A stretch of 40,319 bases of DNA from Candidatus Nomurabacteria bacterium (GCA_023898585.1 CP060229.1:205388-245706), one strand, 5' to 3'. Shown: positions 12,978 through 35,852, numbered from the stretch's first letter. Numbers and translations are program-made. Notes: generated from the letters alone by a model not told the origin.

Positions 12978-13709
12978 TTACTTTGTTTGCTTCCATATAA
13001 ACTTCACAAACTGTCGTTGCAAATCTGCCATCGCTTGATTCTCAACTACCACTGCGTTCAAATCATCAAATGAAACAAGTAACAATTTGTCTCCTGCAAT
13101 AGTTATGTCAACAGAGAAGATGAACTCTTTGGGCAACAACTTTGATTTTGCAACTGGCCGTCCCCACTCTTCTTTTACATATTGAATTCCAGTTGGTGTA
13201 TTGAGCACAAGGTCACGCAAACTTCCCCCCTCACTCTTAATATTAGACAGAAACTCTTCCCCATCTTTCTGAGAAAAAACCTGAAAGTAACGTTCAGCTG
13301 CAAACATTGACCAAACGGTATGTGAAGTTTTCGTAATTTCTCTATACAAATTACGAAGAGATTCCTTTCCTTCATAAAATCTCAAAACTGGACGAGAAGA
13401 CGAATAAGCAAACATATTTTGTAGTTGGGGTAGTGCATCCTGAATACGTTTTTGCGCAGTTTCTGACATTTTTAATACTCTTTTAGGGTCTTCAGGATAG
13501 TACATTACTCTTTTACCAACAACTGTCTTACGAATCAGATCACACGCTACTATTCTATCGACGTACTGATAAATAGTTGGTCGCTTCAGCTCAGCATTGC
13601 GAGCAATGTCTGTCACTGTACTTTTTCCATGTTTTAAAACAGCCAAATAAACAGCGATTTCGACTTTATTTAACCCGATAGATGCCAAAGATTTAGAGAT
13701 GTTTTCCAT
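12978..13709 (-). CDS. TrmB-family transcriptional regulator
   Basis: N-terminal winged HTH ..IGLNKVEIAVYLAVLKHGKSTVTDIARNAELKRPTIYQYVDRIV.. is typical of TrmB-type regulators. The ORF-track start at 13712 is TTG, so I use the adjacent ATG. Confidence 0.75.
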   Translation of the reverse strand: MENISKSLASIGLNKVEIAVYLAVLKHGKSTVTDIARNAELKRPTIYQYVDRIVACDLIRKTVVGKRVMYYPEDPKRVLKMSETAQKRIQDALPQLQNMFAYSSSRPVLRFYEGKESLRNLYREITKTSHTVWSMFAAERYFQVFSQKDGEEFLSNIKSEGGSLRDLVLNTPTGIQYVKEEWGRPVAKSKLLPKEFIFSVDITIAGDKLLLVSFDDLNAVVVENQAMADLQRQFVKFIWKQTK

Positions 13710-13738
13710 CAACTCATTGTATTGTTTAATCTAGGAAA

Positions 13739-27863: not shown

Positions 27864-28190
27864 GGGAGTAGACTATACACGACACAAGGTAACGATGCAA
27901 AACTGGCTTGCTTGCGCTTATAATTTTATTAATTGTTCAAAATAACTAACCACAGCTATCTTGTACTAATTTTCTCCACAAAGATCTCATATGTGAGAAT
28001 AGTAATTAATTACTAAGATTGGACACATATGTCACACAGATCACCAATAGGTAATAAGGTAGATACTAAATAAAATGAGAAATCAGCGCATGACTCAGTA
28101 CATACAAGCGACACAACTAACTCCAGGCGGAGTATATTTCTTCAAGAAACTATCCTCTATGCCAATTGTATTGTAAATTTATTATATTTG

Positions 28191-28209
28191 TGTATACTTG
28201 ACACTAAGT
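28191..28209 (+). promoter_or_regulatory. Island motif copy a (TGT-N6-GACACTAAGT), candidate NrtR box
   Basis: tgtatacttgacactaagt. Confidence 0.55.
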
Positions 28210-28282
28210 TAGTATTTTGCTAACTTACATGTAGTTGCTGAGGAAAAGGGTTGCTACTGTAGCAACCACATATCTTCTCGTA

Positions 28283-28301
28283 ACTTAGTGTACTTTATAC
28301 A
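28283..28301 (-). promoter_or_regulatory. Island motif copy b, candidate NrtR box
   Basis: The minus strand reads tgtataaagtacactaagt. Confidence 0.6.
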
Positions 28302-28352
28302 GTAAAAAATTAACTGACATAGGTCTCGCGAGAGATCAAAACTTATCAGATA

Positions 28353-28371
28353 ACTTAGTGTAAGTAATACA
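28353..28371 (-). promoter_or_regulatory. Island motif copy c, candidate NrtR box
   Basis: The minus strand reads tgtattacttacactaagt. Confidence 0.6.
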
Positions 28372-28608
28372 CTTCTAATGAGCTGGTGCGTTCGAGGGCA
28401 AAGTCTGGAGCGCTCCAGCTCATCGGAAGGTGAGGAAGTCTAGGAGACTTTCCCAATACCTTGCCAGACATTTCTGGAGTTTACGAACAGTAATATCGGC
28501 AAGGTGTACAGCACCTGTAAAGTGAGCTTGTTCTTTGAAAACCGCATACCGCATTAACACTTCCCTAACGAGGCAGTAGCCTCACCACTTCTAATAAGGA
28601 GAACGACG
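28372..28608 (+). other. Long structured leader upstream of the pncA-like gene (candidate cis-regulatory RNA)
   Basis: Stems at 28378-86/28415-23 (9 bp), about 28434-40/28446-53, and 28458-65/28498-505 (8 bp). Long-range ggtgagg (28429-35) pairs with cctcacc (28580-86) just before the SD. Confidence 0.4.
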
Positions 28609-29439
28609 ATGAAAGTACACCTGCTGGTCATTGACCCTCAGAATGATTTCATGGATCAACCGAAGGCCGCATTGCCGGTTGCAGGAGCTATGGAAGATAT
28701 GAAGCGACTAGCTACCATGGTCGACCGCGTTGGAGCAAAACTTCAGAAAATCCACGTCACCCTCGATAGTCACCACCTGGTAGACATCGCTCACCCAGCC
28801 TTCTGGCGTGACAACAGTGGTGTGTCACCGAATCCGCTGACCATCATATCGTCTGACGCCATTAAGGATGGTACTTGGGTACCGCGTCGACCGGAGCTAC
28901 GTAATTATGCCACCGGCTATGCTGAAGACTTGGAACGTGCCGGAAAGTATCAGTTGATGGTGTGGCCACCACACTGCCTCATTGGTAGCTGGGGCCACAA
29001 CATACAGTCTGACCTCTCTGCCGCACTGGATCGCTGGAGCGATGCTCGGGTTCGTAATGTAGACTTCGTAACCAAAGGCACCAACGTGCTCACCGAGCAC
29101 TATGGCGCCCTCCTGGCTGAGGTTCCAATCCAAAATGACCCATCGACACAGCTCAACGGCCGATTCTTGCAGATGCTACAGGAGGCCGATGTTATCGCCG
29201 TCGCCGGTGAAGCATCGAGCCACTGTGTAAAAGCAACTGTAGAACAGGTGGCCGATAACATCGGAGAGGAGCACATCAAGAAGTTCCGCCTGCTCAGGGA
29301 CGCGATGTCGCCAGTTTCAGCCGTGACTGCACCTGACGGTTCGGTCATTGTTGACTTCCCCGCTATCGCTAACCAGTTTCTCAAGGATATGGCCAGCCGT
29401 GGTATGAAGTTGTCGAACACTGTTGACTTTCTGGCTTGA
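28609..29439 (+). CDS. pncA: Nicotinamidase-like cysteine hydrolase (isochorismatase family)
   Basis: VIDPQNDF (catalytic Asp region), VWPPHC (nicotinamidase-type metal-binding motif) and AGEASSHCV (catalytic Cys). Genomic context with pncB and nrtR. Strong SD aaggag. Confidence 0.8.
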   Translation: MKVHLLVIDPQNDFMDQPKAALPVAGAMEDMKRLATMVDRVGAKLQKIHVTLDSHHLVDIAHPAFWRDNSGVSPNPLTIISSDAIKDGTWVPRRPELRNYATGYAEDLERAGKYQLMVWPPHCLIGSWGHNIQSDLSAALDRWSDARVRNVDFVTKGTNVLTEHYGALLAEVPIQNDPSTQLNGRFLQMLQEADVIAVAGEASSHCVKATVEQVADNIGEEHIKKFRLLRDAMSPVSAVTAPDGSVIVDFPAIANQFLKDMASRGMKLSNTVDFLA

Positions 29440-29450
29440 GCAACAAAACG

Positions 29451-29471
29451 GGCGGTGGCAAAGCCACCGCC
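29451..29471 (+). promoter_or_regulatory. Intercistronic GC hairpin between pncA and the vWA gene
   Basis: Perfect 9 bp stem ggcggtggc-aaa-gccaccgcc with no U-tail. Confidence 0.5.
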
Positions 29472-29504
29472 AACACAAACATTCACAATCAAGAGGATAC
29501 TTCC

Positions 29505-30305
29505 ATGAACGATACAATGAATGACTTTTCCTTTGGCAGCGGCTTCCAGTTCTCGGGCGCCACCATCGACAACCTCGAGGCCTCCGAGTACACCCTGGTC
29601 ACCATCGCCCTCGATGAGAGTGGCTCGATCAGTGGATTCGAATCGCAGATCGAGGACATGCTGAAGGCCGCCGTCGGCGCGTGCTTCAGCTCACCGTACT
29701 CTAACAACCTGCTCATTCGTGTGATCCGTTTCGGTTCACAGTACAAACACCAGAATGGCAACGGCGTCGACGAGATACATGGCTTCAAGCCGCTCTCGGA
29801 GATCGACGTGAACGCCTACCCCAATCTGCGCGGCGGTGGCGCAACACCACTCAACGATGGAGTCTACTCATCGGTTGGCGCTATGAACCAGTACGCTGAA
29901 AGCCTGGTCGATCTCGACTTTGCCGTCAACGGCATCACCTTCGTCATCAGCGACGGTGGCGAAAACGCCTCAGTCGCAACGGCGAAGATGGTCAAGGACG
30001 AACTCAAGAAGTCGGTCACCGGCGAAGTGATGGAGTCACACCTTTCCATCTTGATTGGTATCAATATAGTTACCGATGATATGAGAAAGAGAAATCCAAC
30101 CTACGCAAAGCAGATCGAAGCAAAAGTCGAGCAAGACCTAGAGAACTTCCAGCGTGATGCAGGTATGAGCCAGTTCATCTGGGCCGGCGAAGCGACCAAA
30201 AGCAAACTCGCGAAACTGGCAGAGTTTGTTTCGCAGTCGATCTCGTCTACCTCCCAGGCACTGGGAACCGGCGGACCGAGCCAAAACATCTCGGCCACCA
30301 TCTGA
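29505..30305 (+). CDS. von Willebrand factor A domain protein (YegL / TerY-like)
   Basis: MIDAS motif in ..VTIALDESGSISG.. (DxSxS) and vWA-fold length. I take the start at MNDTMNDF after the hairpin and the SD aagagga. The ORF-track start at 29436 is a TTG overlapping the pncA stop. Confidence 0.8.
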   Translation: MNDTMNDFSFGSGFQFSGATIDNLEASEYTLVTIALDESGSISGFESQIEDMLKAAVGACFSSPYSNNLLIRVIRFGSQYKHQNGNGVDEIHGFKPLSEIDVNAYPNLRGGGATPLNDGVYSSVGAMNQYAESLVDLDFAVNGITFVISDGGENASVATAKMVKDELKKSVTGEVMESHLSILIGINIVTDDMRKRNPTYAKQIEAKVEQDLENFQRDAGMSQFIWAGEATKSKLAKLAEFVSQSISSTSQALGTGGPSQNISATI

Positions 30306-30334
30306 GGTAGCCTTCGGCTACATGTTCTTTTACC

Positions 30335-30353
30335 GGAGGCGCTTCGCGCCTCC
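30335..30353 (+). terminator. Rho-independent terminator after the vWA gene
   Basis: ggaggcgc-ttc-gcgcctcc followed by ttttatt. It is preceded by the smaller hairpin gtagcc..ggctac (30307-30321). Confidence 0.75.
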
Positions 30354-30359
30354 TTTTAT

Positions 30360-30378
30360 TGTACTTAATACACTAAGT
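30360..30378 (+). promoter_or_regulatory. Island motif copy d, candidate NrtR box directly upstream of the PP2C gene
   Basis: tgtacttaatacactaagt, ending 17 nt before the ATG at 30396. Confidence 0.6.
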
Positions 30379-30395
30379 ATACAAGGAGAAACCAC

Positions 30396-31301
30396 ATGAA
30401 ACTCTTTACCGACCACAGCTTCCACATTGGGGAGCAACACTTACGCCAAGGCAAACCTTGCCAAGACTATGCTCTTTCGGGTAGCCTCGGACGTGAGACT
30501 GCATATGCGATCGTGAGTGACGGCTGTTCCTCAGGTGGGATGACAGACATTGGCTCGCGCTTGATGACACTCGCTACCCTTCGCGCACTGCATGAGCAAA
30601 TACCGAGCAACGACTTCGCAACAAGGGACAGCGATATCGCCCGTGATACCTACCTCGAATCTTCAAGACTAAATCTGCGACTTGAGACAAAAGACCTTTT
30701 AGCTACCTGTCTCTGGGCTGTCGTACATAAAAACGAAGTGGTGATTAACGTCACTGGTGACGGTGTTGTAGCATTGGAGTTCGAAGCAGGAATGATCATC
30801 AAGACCTTTTCCTGGCAAAAGAATATGCCGTACTACCCAGCATACCGAATCGGTGGTATGGATGAACCATTCACTGAGAATCATTCAGACAATCTTGCTC
30901 CACTAACAATCATCGAGTCGGTAATCGTGACACCAGGAGGTGATGTTCAACTTACCAACAATGTCGTGACAAAAGGTGTGAGTGTGAGAGAGGGCATGCG
31001 CGGTATCGTATACACCGAAAGTATCATTAATACCGCCCTAGGGAACCTTCGCACCGTCGCACTCTTCTCTGATGGTATCGAGCAGATCGATCAAATTGAA
31101 ACCGTATCTGCAGTCAAAGCGCTCTTGTCCTTCAAAAGTGTCAGTGGTCAATTCGCCGTCCGGCGAATGAACCGCTTTCTACAAGACGTAAAGAAACAAG
31201 GCCGCGGACCGATAGACGATATCGCGTACGCTGTTATTCACTCAGAAAACAAGGAGACAGATCATGTCAACAATCAAACGACCGAAAAAAGTAACACTTG
31301 A
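30396..31301 (+). CDS. PP2C-family Ser/Thr phosphatase-like protein (YegK/PphC-like)
   Basis: ..GKPCQDYA.. and ..AIVSDGCSSGG.. match the PP2C_2-type N-terminal metal-binding motifs. Strong SD aaggag. Confidence 0.75.
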   Translation: MKLFTDHSFHIGEQHLRQGKPCQDYALSGSLGRETAYAIVSDGCSSGGMTDIGSRLMTLATLRALHEQIPSNDFATRDSDIARDTYLESSRLNLRLETKDLLATCLWAVVHKNEVVINVTGDGVVALEFEAGMIIKTFSWQKNMPYYPAYRIGGMDEPFTENHSDNLAPLTIIESVIVTPGGDVQLTNNVVTKGVSVREGMRGIVYTESIINTALGNLRTVALFSDGIEQIDQIETVSAVKALLSFKSVSGQFAVRRMNRFLQDVKKQGRGPIDDIAYAVIHSENKETDHVNNQTTEKSNT

Positions 31302-32991
31302 AGGTTATGGTGATCTCACTCTACGGACAGCCGACTACGTCACTGAAGGTGGCGAGGGAGCGATATACCGCAAAGGAGGCTATATCATCAAGCTCTACCA
31401 TGACGCACAAAAAATGCAACGAGACGATATGTCCGAGAAGATTCACCTTTTAGCATCGTCACTCAAGCACCCATCGATCGTAACGCCGAAGGGTTTGGTG
31501 ATCGATAGTAACGAAGCCATAGGATACTATATGCCCTTTGTACAAGGCGAAGCGTATCCCAAACTTTTCACCAACGACTTCCGTAACCAAAACGGCATCG
31601 ACACACTAGGTGTGACCCACCTGGCCACGAAAATGCATGAAGTTGTAGATTACGTACATAGGCAAGGAGCTCTCTTGGTCGACGCCAACGAGCTCAATTG
31701 GCTGGCGGACATCAAAGATGTCCGCCAGCCAACCCCCTACGTCATCGACGTCGACTCGTGGCAAATCGATCACTTCAAAGCTTCCGTCATCATGCCATCC
31801 ATTCGAGATTGGCACGGAAGTATCAGCGAGGCTTCGGATTGGTTCTCTTGGGGTATTGTCACTTTTCTCTTATACACAGGTATCCACCCATACAAAGGCA
31901 ATCTCGACGGCTACAAACCGGGTGAACTGGAACGACGTATGAAGAACAACGCTTCTGTCTTTTTACCAGGTGTCCGTCTTAACAAGGCAGTTCGCGACTT
32001 TAGGATCATCCCAGGTCCACTCCTTGATTGGTATGAGGCGACATTCACGCAAGGTGAACGGACTCTGCCACCCTCGCCTCAAGCGACCGGCAAAGCCAAT
32101 ACTAACCTAGGTCAGATCATGCGCGTCGTCACCACGCAAAGTGGTGGACTTATCTTCGAGCGATTGCTCGAGGTGCCTGGCGAACGGGTTGTATCGATCT
32201 GGCCGTGCGGCGTAGTTCGTACCAATGCTGGCACTCTGGTCGATGTCGCAACCAAGCGCACCATTGGACAAACCAGCAACGGACGCGTCGCGGTGGTAGG
32301 TCGTGACAACGGCTGGGTCATTGTGGAAGAAGTGAGTGGAGCCTGGCAGTGGCGCTTTATCGACCGACGCGGCACTGAAAGCACACTTACGGTGCCACTT
32401 ACAGTAACCACCATACTCCGCAGTGGTGAACGACTCTTCGCAGTCACCGAGTCCGAACTCATCGAACTCACCCTGCAAGCGTTCAGCAAGCCAGTACTCA
32501 CGTTAGGAAATCGGTGGCAGATACTCGGGAAGGGTACCCGGTGGTTTAGTGAAGTCGGGGTAAGTAATATCCTTGGTGCCATGCACCTCATTGCACCATA
32601 TGGTGCCAACGCAGTCGCTATGGTGCGTACCTCTGAACTCGACGGACTCACTGTTGTGAACGCCAAGGCTGGCACTCGGTTTGTCGTCGTTGTGACGGTA
32701 AGCCATAATGGTGAGTACGAGGAGCATCGTTTTGCCTTCGATAAAAACTGGAAGCAATACCAGTACGATCGCGAGCTGGTGGATGGATCCGAACTCAACC
32801 TCACCATCCTCCCGAAAGGCGTGACCGCTTCGATCAGGGACGACGGCGAGCTCATCATCGCAGTGCCGTTTCAGGGCGATAAAAAGGTCGTGTCTGATAG
32901 AGATATATGCACCAATCTGCGCCTCGCTCACATCATAGACAAGGTGGTCTATCAAAAAGATGGCGTCTTGTGGTCACTGGGTATGCGGTAA
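31264..32991 (+). CDS. Atypical Ser/Thr protein kinase (YegI-like) with a ~290-aa beta-rich C-terminal domain
   Basis: Gly-rich loop EGGEGAIY, Lys in IIKLYH, catalytic-loop-like LVDANELNWL, and DVDSW in place of DFG. As I recall the E. coli YegI sequence, it shows the same non-canonical pattern. Overlaps the PP2C gene by 38 nt. SD aaggag. Confidence 0.75.
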   Translation: MSTIKRPKKVTLEGYGDLTLRTADYVTEGGEGAIYRKGGYIIKLYHDAQKMQRDDMSEKIHLLASSLKHPSIVTPKGLVIDSNEAIGYYMPFVQGEAYPKLFTNDFRNQNGIDTLGVTHLATKMHEVVDYVHRQGALLVDANELNWLADIKDVRQPTPYVIDVDSWQIDHFKASVIMPSIRDWHGSISEASDWFSWGIVTFLLYTGIHPYKGNLDGYKPGELERRMKNNASVFLPGVRLNKAVRDFRIIPGPLLDWYEATFTQGERTLPPSPQATGKANTNLGQIMRVVTTQSGGLIFERLLEVPGERVVSIWPCGVVRTNAGTLVDVATKRTIGQTSNGRVAVVGRDNGWVIVEEVSGAWQWRFIDRRGTESTLTVPLTVTTILRSGERLFAVTESELIELTLQAFSKPVLTLGNRWQILGKGTRWFSEVGVSNILGAMHLIAPYGANAVAMVRTSELDGLTVVNAKAGTRFVVVVTVSHNGEYEEHRFAFDKNWKQYQYDRELVDGSELNLTILPKGVTASIRDDGELIIAVPFQGDKKVVSDRDICTNLRLAHIIDKVVYQKDGVLWSLGMR

Positions 32992-33041
32992 AGGAAGCAG
33001 ATATTGTTCTTTCTGGAATCCTTGGATTTATTATCCTTTTG

Positions 33042-33060
33042 CCCGGCGCTTCGCGCCGGG
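33042..33060 (+). terminator. Rho-independent terminator after the kinase gene
   Basis: cccggcgc-ttc-gcgccggg followed by ttttt. It shares the 13-nt core ggcgcttcgcgcc with the terminator at 30335. Confidence 0.8.
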
Positions 33061-33100
33061 TTTTTCATATCACCAATAATTATCCAATCAGGTTTTGCTA

Positions 33101-33130
33101 TTGACAAAATCGACAATTATATTATTATAA
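33101..33130 (+). promoter_or_regulatory. Candidate sigma70-type promoter for the zinc-finger miniprotein gene
   Basis: A perfect TTGACA at 33101-33106 is followed by an A/T-rich -10 region (..attatattattataaa..). The exact -10 hexamer is ambiguous. Confidence 0.4.
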
Positions 33131-33166
33131 ATGTTGCTGTTCAATCATTAAAAAGGGAGAAAAAAC

Positions 33167-33415
33167 ATGGCGAAAAGTTGCGCCGGTGGTTCATGCCCAA
33201 ACACTGGTGGCTATTGTCCATCAGATGGTAGCTTGGCTGGATGTTCAAGAGTAAGCAGTGCCGTGGCACATAACAGTAGGAGCAGTGGAAACGCGATGGT
33301 TACTTGCACTCATTGCCTTGGATCAAAATTAATCATATGTTCGATCTGTGGTGGTAGTGGAAAAATGCCAATGTTAACAGCTCGACGTAATGCTCCTGGC
33401 CATAGGCATCTCTAA
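33167..33415 (+). CDS. Cys-rich miniprotein with DnaJ-type CxxCxGxG zinc-finger motifs (82 aa)
   Basis: CTHCLGSK and CSICGGSGK (CxxCxGxG pattern) plus four more N-terminal Cys. It has its own SD (agggag), promoter candidate and terminator. Confidence 0.65.
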   Translation: MAKSCAGGSCPNTGGYCPSDGSLAGCSRVSSAVAHNSRSSGNAMVTCTHCLGSKLIICSICGGSGKMPMLTARRNAPGHRHL

Positions 33416-33433
33416 ACTCTAATCAAAATCTGA

Positions 33434-33457
33434 AAACCGGCGAATTATCGCCGGTTT
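33434..33457 (+). terminator. Terminator after the miniprotein gene
   Basis: aaaccggcga-atta-tcgccggttt. Confidence 0.7.
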
Positions 33458-33623
33458 AGTTATTTTACACTGTCTCCTTAGGTAGCGATTTTGTGCAATT
33501 GACTCAACACGATACCGCAACTAAACATCGGGCGCGAGCTCAAAACGATTCAAATCGATCCGACCATGTGACAAACGATGAACCTCCCTCAGCAGGAGCT
33601 GGGGTTTTATATGGTTATAAAAA

Positions 33624-33648
33624 ACCTGGTCGCTGTGGGCGACCAGGT
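33624..33648 (-). terminator. Rho-independent terminator after pncB
   Basis: acctggtcgc..gcgaccaggt, followed by ttttt on the minus strand. Confidence 0.8.
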
Positions 33649-33656
33649 CATAATTT

Positions 33657-34994
33657 TTATACCACTGTCTCACGCGCTACTTCGCCGACCTTGGCAAAGA
33701 GCCGATCGTACCGAGCGATCTCAGCCAAATCCTCCCCCGAGTGCTTGTTAGGGTTGTCAGACAGCTTCACCGTCGGCAGTCCATTAGCTTCAACAACTTT
33801 TATCACCATAGACAAAGTGTGAAATCCGGTGTCTTTCGGCAGGATGTCGTTGATGTTATTGGTCGCTCCGGTTCCCCACCCAAAAGTGAGCACACCCACT
33901 TGGTCGTGGAACTTTCGCCACAACTCAACCATACGATTAGGTGTCAGACCATCTGACGGGATGATCACTTTTTTCAGCGGGTCCTCACCGTTGTCGCGGA
34001 ACCATTCGACGATCTCTGGAATCGACTGTTCTTCCACCTTTGAATCGATTCGCACCCCTTTGGTAGCGACTGCAATCTCGCGCGACGCACCTTGAAGGAA
34101 CGCGGTCGTTCGATAAGTATCAGGTAACAAGATTGCAAGCTCCGGATAAAAACGGTTCCATCTCTCTACCACATCGTAGGGCGAACGTTTGATCCATTCA
34201 TCTGAGTTGCCATTTAATGTTGACCAGACCATTGGAAGTTCATGCGCATTAGTGCCCCTCGGATTGTTTTGTCCGGTCTTAAAAGCCAACCAGACATTGG
34301 AAGGAGCAATGCACTGCTTTGGCAACAACTCATCAAATACTTCCTGTACGATCACTTCCCACATTCTTGAATGACGCCGACGATGTCCAAACTGTGCAAA
34401 TGTCAGTCCTGGGTGTTGTGCCAACTGCTTACTGTCACGCACGACACGTTGATAAAGCTCAGCGTAAAAAGTACTGAACTCAGCCCTGCTGATGCCACGC
34501 TTTTGCCACAGGTGCCAGTAATAGAGCTCGGAGATGATTGCCATCGCTGACGTTTCCCAGTTCATGACTGACAGCCACGAGCCATTGAACGACAGTTTGA
34601 TCTCTCCGCTAGGCAGATAAATCAGCTCATACTCGGTCAGATCGCGCCGTTTCAGCTCGTCGATAAACTCGATCGGGAAGAGTGCCCGCTTCTTACCGTC
34701 AACTTGTTCAACAGTCATTCCGCTGAGTTGAGACAACTCAGTCTCGGTGTATTGTAGTTTCATGAGTACATCCAACTGTTCGCGCAGTGCTTCCTCAGGT
34801 ATGACCATGCCCAACTTTACACCCTTGGTTCGCATAGTCAGTTTGAACTTCACCGGAACGTCGGCCATACCTTCTCTCCAGATGAACTGACCCATAACAA
34901 ACTTATATATGTCTACATCCAGTCGCGAGGTAATGATAGCATCGCCATCGCTGTTGGCTGGAGCAAAGATTTTACGTGGACTTATGAATGTCAT
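33657..34994 (-). CDS. pncB: Nicotinate phosphoribosyltransferase
   Basis: 445 aa. N-terminal ..DVDIYKFVMGQF.. (TDxYKxxM-type), ..FGWGTGATNN.. and ..VKLSDNPNKHSG.. match NAPRTase family patterns. Strong SD gaggagg. Confidence 0.85.
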   Translation of the reverse strand: MTFISPRKIFAPANSDGDAIITSRLDVDIYKFVMGQFIWREGMADVPVKFKLTMRTKGVKLGMVIPEEALREQLDVLMKLQYTETELSQLSGMTVEQVDGKKRALFPIEFIDELKRRDLTEYELIYLPSGEIKLSFNGSWLSVMNWETSAMAIISELYYWHLWQKRGISRAEFSTFYAELYQRVVRDSKQLAQHPGLTFAQFGHRRRHSRMWEVIVQEVFDELLPKQCIAPSNVWLAFKTGQNNPRGTNAHELPMVWSTLNGNSDEWIKRSPYDVVERWNRFYPELAILLPDTYRTTAFLQGASREIAVATKGVRIDSKVEEQSIPEIVEWFRDNGEDPLKKVIIPSDGLTPNRMVELWRKFHDQVGVLTFGWGTGATNNINDILPKDTGFHTLSMVIKVVEANGLPTVKLSDNPNKHSGEDLAEIARYDRLFAKVGEVARETVV

Positions 34995-35072
34995 GAGACA
35001 CCTCCTCTAAAACATAATTTGTTTAGTTGGTTAGATTTCAAAGATCAATTTACTTTGTGTGTATCTAACAAT

Positions 35073-35101
35073 ATCCTATACATTTCGTTTGTTGTTGTCA
35101 A
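35073..35101 (-). promoter_or_regulatory. Candidate pncB promoter (-35 TTGACA, 17-nt spacer, -10 TAGGAT)
   Basis: Read on the minus strand. The -35 hexamer is the terminal part of motif copy e. Confidence 0.5.
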
Positions 35102-35114
35102 TGGTACACTAAGT
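35096..35114 (+). promoter_or_regulatory. Island motif copy e, candidate NrtR box overlapping the pncB -35
   Basis: tgtcaatggtacactaagt. Confidence 0.6.
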
Positions 35115-35160
35115 AAAGGGTGATTTTTTTGCTTTTGTTCTATATTCATTCTCTGTCCTC

Positions 35161-35832
35161 TTACGCAAACAACTCTAATTCGAGCAGGTTTTTGCTTGTG
35201 AACTCATGTAAAGATGCAGGGCGGTTTTTAACGCCTTCTTGCATCGTACCAGTGTCTTTAACAATATCGAGTGATAATACTTTTTTGCGAAAGTTTCTTT
35301 TATCAAATTTTCTACGCAGAACAATCTCATATACTGACTGCAATTCAGAGAGCGTGAAATGTCTCGGCAATAGATATTGAGCAATTGTGGTATATGATAG
35401 TTTTCCTTGTAGACGTCTTACTGCCATGTTAAGCATATCGTCATGATCATAGGCTAAATTCTTAAGCTCTCTCACTGGAACGAACAGTGCCTTTTCGTGA
35501 GTATACGTCGCCACCACATCAGGGCGAACCAGGCCGATGTATGCTACGGAAACTACCCTATTTCTCCTGTCCCTCTTCACCGCACTAAAAGTATACAATT
35601 GTTCTGTATAAACCTGTTTGAGTCCTCCCTTCTCCGACAAGATCCGATCGCAGGTTTCTTCGGCAGTCTCCTTGGAGTCAACTATTCCCCCTAAAAAACC
35701 GAGTACATTTACGTAGTGAGGGGGACGGTTCACTGGTGCAACAAGTGCGTACAACTCTTCGTCAACAAAACCAAACACAACAACATCTACTGCCATAGCA
35801 GCAAAACGTAATTTCTCCGGGGCTTTTTTCAC
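35161..35832 (-). CDS. nrtR: NrtR-type Nudix-related transcriptional regulator
   Basis: N-terminal Nudix fold with a degenerate Nudix box (GIVDSKETAEETCDRILSEKGGL). The C-terminal wHTH segment ..FTLSELQSVYEIVLRRKFDKRNFRKKV.. is characteristic of NrtR. The ORF-track start is GTG, and an internal ATG (M13, 35796) is an alternative start. Confidence 0.8.
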   Translation of the reverse strand: MKKAPEKLRFAAMAVDVVVFGFVDEELYALVAPVNRPPHYVNVLGFLGGIVDSKETAEETCDRILSEKGGLKQVYTEQLYTFSAVKRDRRNRVVSVAYIGLVRPDVVATYTHEKALFVPVRELKNLAYDHDDMLNMAVRRLQGKLSYTTIAQYLLPRHFTLSELQSVYEIVLRRKFDKRNFRKKVLSLDIVKDTGTMQEGVKNRPASLHEFTSKNLLELELFA

Positions 35833-35833
35833 A

Positions 35834-35852
35834 TGTTAATTGTACACTGAGT
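35834..35852 (+). promoter_or_regulatory. Island motif copy f, candidate autoregulatory NrtR box abutting the nrtR start
   Basis: tgttaattgtacactgagt (one mismatch in the TAAGT part), beginning 2 nt from the GTG start. Confidence 0.55.

Follow-up and report, generated by a model that had tools for sequence, protein, structure and literature searches.

Triads of a vWA domain protein, a PP2C phosphatase and a Ser/Thr kinase are known as the TerY-P module, which was reportedly described by Anantharaman, Iyer and Aravind in 2012 and of which yegL-pphC-yegI of Escherichia coli is said to be an example. A triad of this architecture is encoded in a 40,319-nucleotide stretch (hereafter, the window) of the genome of a Candidatus Nomurabacteria bacterium (GCA_023898585.1, CP060229.1:205388-245706), where it lies, between positions 28,191 and 35,852, among genes for the salvage of nicotinamide adenine dinucleotide (NAD). 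Comparison with related loci indicates that this triad belongs to a conserved four-gene cassette that starts with a gene for a nicotinamidase-like protein (denoted pncA-like) and is predicted to be controlled by the Nudix-type regulator NrtR.

Like the cassette, TerY-P modules consist of co-transcribed genes encoding a vWA protein with a metal ion-dependent adhesion site (MIDAS), a PP2C_2-type phosphatase and a Hanks-type kinase with a C-terminal non-catalytic domain. In TerY-P kinases, this domain is a Zn-ribbon (classical form) or an OB-fold (defense variant) (PMC11090510), whereas the cassette kinase is modeled as ending in a beta-propeller. Unlike TerY-P, the cassette has an obligatory fourth gene, the nicotinamidase-like one, that leads the operon, and its context is NAD salvage and NrtR rather than tellurite resistance, restriction or CoCoNuT systems. 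According to PMC11090510, which cites Gao 2020, TerY-P-like triads have also been reported as stand-alone defense systems. PADLOC called neither TerY-P nor any other system, and none of its models matched the vWA protein or PP2C; the kinase matched only PD-T4-6, weakly (2.5e-4). PHROGs yielded only weak matches to families of unknown function. In pairwise BLASTP comparisons, E. coli YegL and PphC were not significantly similar to the cassette vWA protein and PP2C, and YegI was 23% identical to the kinase over 209 amino acids, in the kinase domain only (E-value, 1e-6). An earlier note on this DNA, made from the sequence alone, had assigned the triad to the TerY-P (YegL-YegK-YegI) type; the three-gene architecture agrees with this assignment, but the beta-propeller, the absence of a PADLOC TerY-P match and the dissimilarity of YegL and PphC do not, and membership of the cassette in TerY-P is not established.

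The second point of comparison is the NrtR regulons described by Rodionov et al. 2008 (PMC2330246). NrtR sites, as given there, are 21-bp palindromes with the core GT-N7-AC, and the regulons resemble the present locus in the regulator, which joins a Nudix-like domain to a winged helix, in the presence of such palindromes upstream of pncB, nrtR and a pncA-type gene, and in the derepression by ADP-ribose that would be expected. The regulon analyzed here, unlike those described, includes a vWA/PP2C/kinase signaling triad; neither protein kinases nor phosphatases turned up as NrtR targets in a term search of PMC2330246, and neither the operator variant found here nor the Patescibacteria lineage was encountered in the descriptions it contains.

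Two further groups of systems connect NAD metabolism with phage-host conflict. The first comprises the phage pathways for NAD+ reconstitution, of which NARP1 consists of Adps and Namat, NARP2 of Nampt and Nmnat, and NARP3 of PnuC and a NadR-like enzyme. All three share with the cassette the presence of NAD-precursor genes on phages and the relevance of nicotinamide and ADP-ribose, the products of defense NADases; in contrast to the cassette, they have neither a nicotinamidase nor any of the triad proteins (vWA, PP2C, kinase). Iyer et al. 2022 (PMC9503650) predicted as conflict systems a set of operons that are centered on ADP-ribosylglycohydrolase (ARG), are regulated by Nudix or WYL transcription factors and contain vWA 'chaperones'. 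These operons have in common with the cassette a Nudix-helix-turn-helix repressor predicted to sense ADP-ribose, a vWA gene in the operon and, often, a coupled phosphatase, and in several loci ARG genes are neighbors of the cassette. However, they center on an ARG enzyme accompanied by phosphatases of the rhodanese-type, calcineurin, HD or HAD families, and no nicotinamidase, PP2C or kinase is described for them (PMC9503650), whereas the cassette has all three. A PncA-like gene of phage G (PMC12484599) is unrelated, with no tblastn match to the cassette.

A four-gene cassette in NAD salvage neighborhoods

Related loci were collected with the kinase profile, one genome per species, which gave 78 loci in which the window proteins were located by tblastn. 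The pncA-like gene was found in 70 of these loci, the vWA gene in 71 and the PP2C gene in 73. Wherever enough upstream sequence was available (70/70 loci), the genes follow each other on the same strand in the order pncA-like, vWA, PP2C, kinase, with the first three lying about 2.6, 1.7 and 0.9 kb upstream of the kinase, respectively. All kinase-anchored loci without cassette genes are interrupted by a contig end. In a second survey, anchored on pncA-like in metagenome loci with at least 1.2 kb of downstream sequence for the vWA count and at least 4.5 kb for the full set, the vWA gene came next in 51 of 56 loci, and 25 of 30 loci had all four genes; as rare exceptions, pncA-like is followed directly by pncB, without the triad (L097, L158). 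It follows from the two surveys that, as judged from gene order, the conserved unit is a four-gene cassette of which pncA-like is the first and most conserved member. The earlier note had correctly placed pncA-like next to the triad, but as a salvage neighbor; its invariant position at the head of the cassette shows that it is not a mere neighbor.

At least one NAD gene was detected by ORF (open reading frame) clustering within 10 kb of the cassette in 55 of the 78 loci, so that the adjacency on which the earlier note had remarked is not peculiar to this genome. The most frequent neighbors are pncB (38 loci) and nrtR (37 loci; 40 and 38, respectively, by tblastn), followed by nadE (27), nadD (23), ARG (9), canonical pncA (8), prs (7), and pnuC, nadR and nadM(-Nudix) (5 each). 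The arrangements vary: the one-strand order in L009 is nrtR, cassette, pncA, nadD, pncB, nadE; in L017, the order is nadD, nrtR, cassette, pncB, nadE; in L078 (Accumulibacter), nrtR is divergent from a cassette-pncB array; and in L079 and L190, annotated with Pfam, nadE, nadD-like CTP_transf_like genes and ADP_ribosyl_GH lie beside the cassette. By estimate rather than by a computed control, this linkage is far above chance for genomes of about 1 Mb with few NAD genes.

In three Moranbacteria-type loci (L010, L042, L045), an additional conserved ORF with the motif ...FMTYERF...GDGYTYD...NRGLMEYIVPN... is located between the NrtR boxes and pncA-like, about 700-1200 nucleotides upstream of the latter, and is a possible fifth operon member in that clade.

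Proteins of the cassette and of the salvage pathway

The pncA-like protein scored below the curated cut-offs of both Pfam Isochorismatase (18 bits vs 27) and NCBIfam PRK11609 (24.6 bits vs 174). In 20 homologs that are 59-88% identical, K156, C206, D53, H55, H62, H122 and the WPxHC motif are invariant and D9 is kept in at least 90%; by alignment, D9, K156 and C206 correspond to the nicotinamidase catalytic triad, and D53, H55, H62 and H122 to the metal ligands. In PncA structures, the metal ligands and WPxHC position the free pyridine nitrogen. A profile of these homologs gave four PDB matches at E-values of 0.01 or less, of which three were nicotinamidases, aligned via DxH and WPxHC, and the fourth was a beta-galactosidase (weak; E-value, 0.001). 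From the conserved active-site residues and the PDB profile matches, the protein is therefore predicted to be a long-form nicotinamidase-like enzyme with complete catalytic and metal sites. It shares with canonical PncA (Mycobacterium tuberculosis PncA, 3pl1; yeast Pnc1, 2h0r) the isochorismatase fold signature, the Asp-Lys-Cys triad, the Asp/His/His/His metal site, WPxHC and the genomic pairing with PncB. However, canonical PncA has about 185-215 amino acids, compared with 276 here, and lacks the insert of about 45 amino acids after the metal-binding His and the C-terminal extension of about 50 amino acids. Unlike the canonical enzyme, the long form nearly always shares a transcript with the triad. 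In some cases canonical PncA is present as well, a 210-amino-acid version being encoded beside the cassette in 8 loci (including L009, 11854-12486).

Neither the Pfam VWA model nor PDB sequence profiles gave a significant match to the vWA protein, and because both miss the domain, a structure prediction was needed. The AlphaFold model has a pLDDT (predicted local distance difference test) score of 84.7, the top Foldseek matches are all vWA or integrin I domains, and the MIDAS residues (D37-x-S/T-x-S41, T114 and D150) are conserved; according to the model, this protein is a vWA fold with an intact MIDAS. Its C-terminal tail (window 30226-30305; FVSQSISSTSQALGTGGPSQNISATI) is Ser/Gln-rich and disordered in the model, and follows a near-invariant pattern, LAKLAxFVSxSISSQSQALGTGGPSQ..T[I/F]-COOH, in Patescibacteria, Bradyrhizobium, Accumulibacter and huge phages, always ending in T-[I/F]-COOH. 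We infer that the tail could be a phospho-acceptor, a peptide docked by the propeller of the kinase, or both.

The phosphatase matched PF13672 (PP2C_2) above the Pfam threshold (E-value, 4.8e-19). The kinase matched Pkinase below the gathering score (4.3e-5), but its profile matches Hanks kinases in the PDB, and the catalytic motifs are invariant, namely the G-loop (GGEG), K43, D140/N145, D162/D164 and DxWxxG. The C-terminal 280 residues were modeled as a beta-propeller (pLDDT of about 90), for which Foldseek returned the clathrin terminal domain, Nup133 and WD40 proteins. At E-values of 1e-30 or less, the kinase family comprises 935 representatives (50% clusters), mostly full length.

PncB matched NAPRTase_N (PF17767; 2.8e-16) and NAPRTase (PF04095; 1.9e-25) above the Pfam thresholds, and NCBIfam PRK05321 at 2.2e-85, under the cut-off of that model. 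NrtR likewise passed the Pfam thresholds for NrtR_WHD (3.1e-22) and NUDIX (2.2e-6), and matched the NCBIfam NtrR model at 4.2e-32, under the equivalog cut-off. As read from the translation, its Nudix box, G-x5-E-x7-R-ILSEK, is degenerate, as expected of a sensor and not of an enzyme. Thus, among the domain calls of the earlier note, PP2C_2, NAPRTase and NrtR_WHD/NUDIX were recovered by profile hidden Markov models, whereas Isochorismatase, Pkinase and VWA fell below the Pfam thresholds and are backed by the other means described above.

Predicted NrtR operators

The 19-nucleotide motif ACTYAGTGT-N6-KACA (ACTYAGTGTNNNNNNKACA, at most one mismatch) occurs exactly six times in the window, at the positions previously claimed for it (Table 1), compared with 0.20 matches expected from shuffles, none of 100 of which reached six; within the 40 kb, no match lies outside 28191-35852. 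Box 1 overlaps a -10-like TATACT, box 5 a -35-like TTGACA and box 6 a -10-like TACAAT. As read by eye, the upstream regions of relatives show the same TTGCAC/TTGCAT ... TATACT arrangement, and box 1 is identical upstream of pncA-like in L001, L002, L003, L005, L046 and L190.

Across 1.27 Mb of related loci, there are 118 matches with at most one mismatch, whereas scaled shuffle rates predict about 6-8. Of 66 loci, 28 have a box within 500 nucleotides upstream of pncA-like, and 32 do when operons starting with nrtR are included; several further loci have boxes upstream of longer operons that contain the cassette, and boxes also precede pncB, nrtR, nadD, nadM and pnuC in relatives. Paired matches on opposite strands, six bases apart in relatives, show the complete site to be palindromic, ACTTAGTGTA-N5-TACACTAAGT. 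The resulting 21-bp operator-like palindrome, TTAGTGTA-N5-TACACTAA, has the core GT-N7-AC and so fits the NrtR site rule as given in PMC2330246.

When the loci without a box were searched strictly for 21-bp palindromes of the GT-N7-AC type, only 3 loci were added, and a separate operator type was therefore defined. This second 21-bp palindrome, TTAGTTGCA-N3-TGCAACTAA, lies between nrtR and pncA-like in loci of the proteobacterial (non-Patescibacteria) type, where 11 loci have it at positions -45 to -230 relative to pncA-like, 70-fold denser than elsewhere. From the distributions of the box and of this palindrome, NrtR-type operator control of the cassette is predicted to be conserved, in two lineage-specific forms. 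The box before the PP2C gene, in contrast, was found in none of the 66 scanned relatives at one mismatch or less, with a degenerate copy in the closest relative, L190, and is for this reason not treated as a conserved second promoter. Inclusion of the triad in NAD salvage and the NrtR regulon, as proposed in the earlier note, is accordingly upheld by deeply conserved linkage and operator-like palindromes, except for the box before PP2C.

Short hairpins rich in G+C occur in alternation with the boxes that precede the cassette (28210-28352), forming a repeated hairpin-plus-box unit; the hairpin in the window is GGTTGCTACTGTAGCAACC (28249-28267), and its counterpart in L001-L006 is CCGCAC-N4-6-GTGCGG. 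In the phage locus L186 (LR745208.1), a weak match to the proteobacterial-type palindrome, TTAGTTGCATTTCGTTACTAT, with 4 mismatches, lies 136 nucleotides upstream of pncA-like and hints that host NrtR could control the cassette in this phage. A TrmB-like regulator encoded 15 kb from the cassette (window 12981-13721, minus strand) is 50% identical to a family adjoining nrtR in 11 related loci.

Leader RNA

Between box 3 and the start codon of pncA-like, a structured leader RNA is predicted. Its long hairpin (about 28376-28430) is common to the window and its 11-12 closest relatives, with compensatory changes in 15 of 20 pairs; 94% of the alignment cells are paired, vs 38-51% when the partner columns are slid, and none of 500 shuffles reached the observed values. 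The 5' arm of a short second hairpin, CCUCA, can alternatively extend the long hairpin, and an invariant element, GTTCTTTGA (window 28530-28538; RNA form, GUUCUUUGA), lies 3' of the short hairpin. A genome-specific insertion of about 90 nucleotides (28441-28529) is present in the window leader.

The covariance model matched the window leader at 28372-28452 (59.9 bits) and recovered the element only upstream of pncA-like in the closest clade: L001 (6814-6896), L003 (7280-7365), L004 (7278-7362), L005 (7243-7328), L006 (7331-7415), L008 (5493-5574), L065 (7179-7264), L081 (1428-1511) and L082 (240-331). Outside this clade, weak matches near pncB, nadD and ARG-nadE (E-values, 0.004-0.6) are suggestive, not established. 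Searches of Rfam returned nothing at gathering scores for the whole window, or at E-values of 5 or less for the leader, and thus no NAD+ riboswitch class. Covariation and conservation make the leader a candidate attenuator or riboswitch, possibly of a new class, for which the ligand could be a pyridine or ADP-ribose.

Organization of the locus

The seven ORFs and the terminators of the region were all found where the earlier note had placed them (Table 1). The five plus-strand ORFs are convergent with pncB and nrtR, and the kinase ORF overlaps the PP2C ORF by 38 nucleotides. For the vWA gene, relatives and most gene callers favor the ATG start at 29505 over the TTG at 29436. The same locus, identically organized, is present in several metagenome assemblies, and the nearest homologs of the kinase are labeled Candidatus Kaiserbacteria, Nomurabacteria or Paceibacteria, which places the window in a genome of the Patescibacteria. 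The G+C content is 0.49-0.55 in the cassette (window 29000-33000), compared with about 0.40-0.45 in the flanking 10 kb, which is consistent with horizontal acquisition.

Table 1. Features of the cassette region, in window coordinates
Feature	Position	Strand	Remarks
pncA-like ORF, 276 aa	28609-29439	+	ORF call
vWA protein	29505-30305	+	266 aa; alternative TTG start 29436 overlaps pncA-like stop
PP2C_2 phosphatase, 301 aa	30396-31301	+	PF13672
Hanks-type Ser/Thr kinase with C-terminal beta-propeller, 575 aa	31264-32991	+	residues ~1-270 / ~294-575
Cys-rich ORF, 82 aa, CxxCxGxx / CxxCxGxG	33167-33415	+	
PncB, nicotinate phosphoribosyltransferase, 445 aa	33657-34994	-	
NrtR, 223 aa, Nudix-like domain and NrtR winged helix	35161-35832	-	
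Sigma-70-like promoter of the cassette operon, TTGTAA-16-TATACT	28171-28198	+	-10 inside box 1
NrtR-type box 1, ACTTAGTGTCAAGTATACA	28191-28209	-	motif scan
NrtR-type box 2	28283-28301	+	motif scan
NrtR-type box 3	28353-28371	+	motif scan
NrtR-type box 4, just 5' of the PP2C ribosome-binding site	30360-30378	-	
NrtR-type box 5, over the -35 of a pncB promoter-like site (35101-35073)	35096-35114	-	
NrtR-type box 6, over the -10 of an nrtR promoter-like site	35834-35852	-	
Structured 5' leader RNA (predicted)	28372-28545	+	covariation, covariance model
Terminator-like hairpin between vWA and PP2C	30335-30353	+	also in closest relative L190
Intrinsic-terminator-like hairpin, cassette end	33041-33061	+	
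Terminator-like hairpin after the Cys-rich ORF	33434-33457		
Bidirectional terminator-like hairpin after pncB	33624-33648	.	

The Cys-rich ORF downstream of the kinase encodes two DnaJ-type zinc-finger motifs, CTHCLGSK and CSICGGSG, and is preceded by a strong promoter-like site of its own (33101-33128; 11/12 matches). No tblastn match to it was found in the 78 related loci, and it is not called as a gene in public assemblies; for these reasons, it was dropped from the module, of which it is probably not a part. The miniprotein that the earlier note had included in the island is thus present as an ORF, but the related loci contain nothing corresponding to it; it is either a genuine gene confined to this strain or not a gene at all.

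Carriers among phages, prophages and cultured bacteria

The kinase profile matched 24 IMG/VR contigs, most of which (about 22) carry all four genes in order. Among GenBank phages, tblastn located the kinase and pncA-like in three assemblies labeled 'uncultured phage', 462-595 kb in size. Two of these, LR756511 (595 kb) and LR745208 (485 kb), have the four genes in order, spaced by ORFs of unknown function; in LR756500 (462 kb), only pncA-like and the kinase were matched. The ORFs between the cassette genes of LR756511 have no Pfam match except for one sulfotransferase, and no extra partner was identified among them.

By exact look-up, the cassette was also found, annotated as hypothetical proteins, in the cultured Bradyrhizobium embrapense, Bradyrhizobium sp. 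USDA 4541 and Bradyrhizobium sp. 41S5, where its neighbors are genes of phage type, for Dam (PF05869), DUF3268 and DUF1643 proteins, a HerA-like ATPase and an exonuclease.

Proposed function and alternatives

We consider, with about even confidence, that the region constitutes a regulon for nicotinamide salvage under the control of NrtR, in a Kaiserbacteria-like genome of the Patescibacteria (candidate phyla radiation). The best reading of the cassette itself, to which we assign moderate confidence, is a nicotinamide salvage operon under NrtR control in which a nicotinamidase has a reversible phosphorylation switch as its obligate partner. Under this scheme, NrtR dimers would occupy the 21-bp palindromes over the cassette, pncB and nrtR promoters and would be released by ADP-ribose when NAD+ is cleaved; box 6 at the nrtR promoter would provide autoregulation, and the leader RNA would add a second control step. 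The long-form nicotinamidase would convert nicotinamide to nicotinate, which feeds PncB. The kinase/PP2C pair would reversibly phosphorylate a partner, for which the most plausible candidate is the tail of the vWA protein, docked on the propeller, and the vWA protein would bind and gate the nicotinamidase or its hand-over to PncB. This would subject the recycling of nicotinamide to post-translational as well as transcriptional switching.

Gene content, folds, active-site conservation, gene order, the NAD neighborhood and the operator-like palindromes are established here; NrtR binding, the response to ADP-ribose, nicotinamidase activity, the phosphorylation pairs and the signal sensed by the propeller or the vWA protein are predictions, which is the first of several points that weigh against the salvage-switch scheme. 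Furthermore, no box is recognizable within 500 nucleotides in about half of the loci, where the motif may be divergent or transcription of the operon may begin at a more distal upstream site. Because canonical PncA is also encoded in 8 loci, simple deamidation of nicotinamide may not be what the long form does, and the two forms may have different roles. Co-transcription alone does not distinguish a regulator of the nicotinamidase from a system that uses the nicotinamidase as its effector. Finally, in Bradyrhizobium and the huge phages, the cassette resides in prophage or phage DNA with neither nrtR nor pncB nearby, a setting that fits housekeeping regulation no better than it fits a role in conflict or an auxiliary one.

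Such a role is the substance of the principal alternative, which we regard as possible but less probable than the salvage operon: the cassette would be a self-contained phage-host conflict module centered on nicotinamide. On the phage side, NAD+ would be rebuilt after the action of host NADase defenses, with nicotinamide converted to nicotinate for the Preiss-Handler enzymes of the host. On the host side, a TerY-P-like sensor would activate the nicotinamidase and so deny nicotinamide to phage NAD+-reconstitution enzymes, with the nicotinate recycled via PncB. Because ADP-ribose is a product of NADases, NrtR control would be the alarm input. The presence of the four genes in order in LR756511, LR745208 and about 22 IMG/VR contigs, and among phage-type genes in Bradyrhizobium, argues for this alternative, as do the reported stand-alone defense function of TerY-P-like triads, the G+C content of the cassette above that of its flanks, and the prediction of Nudix-regulated, vWA-containing ARG systems, given that ARG flanks the cassette in 9 of 78 loci and in L079 and L190. 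NARP1-3 mark NAD+ as a battlefield as well, although none of them uses the cassette proteins. Against these stand the very wide distribution of the cassette in Patescibacteria genomes of about 1 Mb, in synteny with core NAD salvage genes, and the high conservation of its proteins (60-90% identity for pncA-like), whereas defense genes are usually patchy and fast-evolving. No PADLOC defense model matched beyond the weak kinase hit, some IMG/VR 'viral' contigs may be misassigned cellular DNA (L161 carries nrtR), and a nicotinamidase alone neither depletes nor rebuilds NAD+.

The salvage-switch and conflict readings are not mutually exclusive. Tentatively, the cassette might be a mobile, phosphorylation-gated nicotinamide processor in the phage-host struggle over NAD+, with a leader that could represent a new riboswitch or attenuator class. 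If this is true, phages would gain a fourth kind of NAD+-restoring module, and hosts a device that, once induced by ADP-ribose, recovers nicotinamide for the cell and withholds it from the NAD+-reconstitution enzymes of phages.

It is unlikely that the isochorismatase-fold protein is an amidase for a different substrate, such as a protein deamidase acting on the vWA tail or an enzyme acting on another pyridine or nucleotide amide, with the link to NAD being regulatory only. The scores below the Pfam and NCBIfam nicotinamidase cut-offs, the insert and C-terminal extension absent from characterized PncA, the coexistence with canonical PncA and the abundance of Gln and Asn in the vWA tail would all be compatible with such an activity. 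However, the four metal ligands and WPxHC are invariant, three of the four PDB profile matches at E-values of 0.01 or less are nicotinamidases, and in L097 and L158 pncA-like directly precedes pncB with no triad present. Chance adjacency of an unrelated signaling triad in a NAD salvage cluster, to which a single-window view and the terminator-like hairpin separating vWA from PP2C could point, is refuted by the neighborhood survey and highly improbable, given the linkage in 70/70 and 51/56 loci across Patescibacteria, Proteobacteria and phages and the conservation of operators in two forms.

In the literature, we found no nicotinamidase-vWA-PP2C-kinase cassette and no kinases or phosphatases in NrtR regulons, although full-text coverage was partial and absence is not proof; to this extent, the earlier note's view that the coupling of the triad to NAD salvage and NrtR is undescribed holds, with no publication found that describes it. 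To our knowledge, Ser/Thr phospho-signaling has not previously been tied to bacterial NAD salvage. The cassette points to such a link between protein phosphorylation and NAD recycling, kept in a single cassette across about a thousand sequence clusters from Patescibacteria, Proteobacteria, prophage-like DNA and half-megabase phages. It would extend the NrtR regulon beyond metabolic enzymes and offers a concrete, testable function for a TerY-P-like triad, a module of unexplained mechanism. The cultured Bradyrhizobium carriers make genetics and biochemistry feasible. For the Patescibacteria, which have small genomes and probably depend on salvaged pyridines, the cassette would place nicotinamide recycling under a phosphorylation switch, and it is a candidate player in the NAD+ arms race between phages and bacteria.

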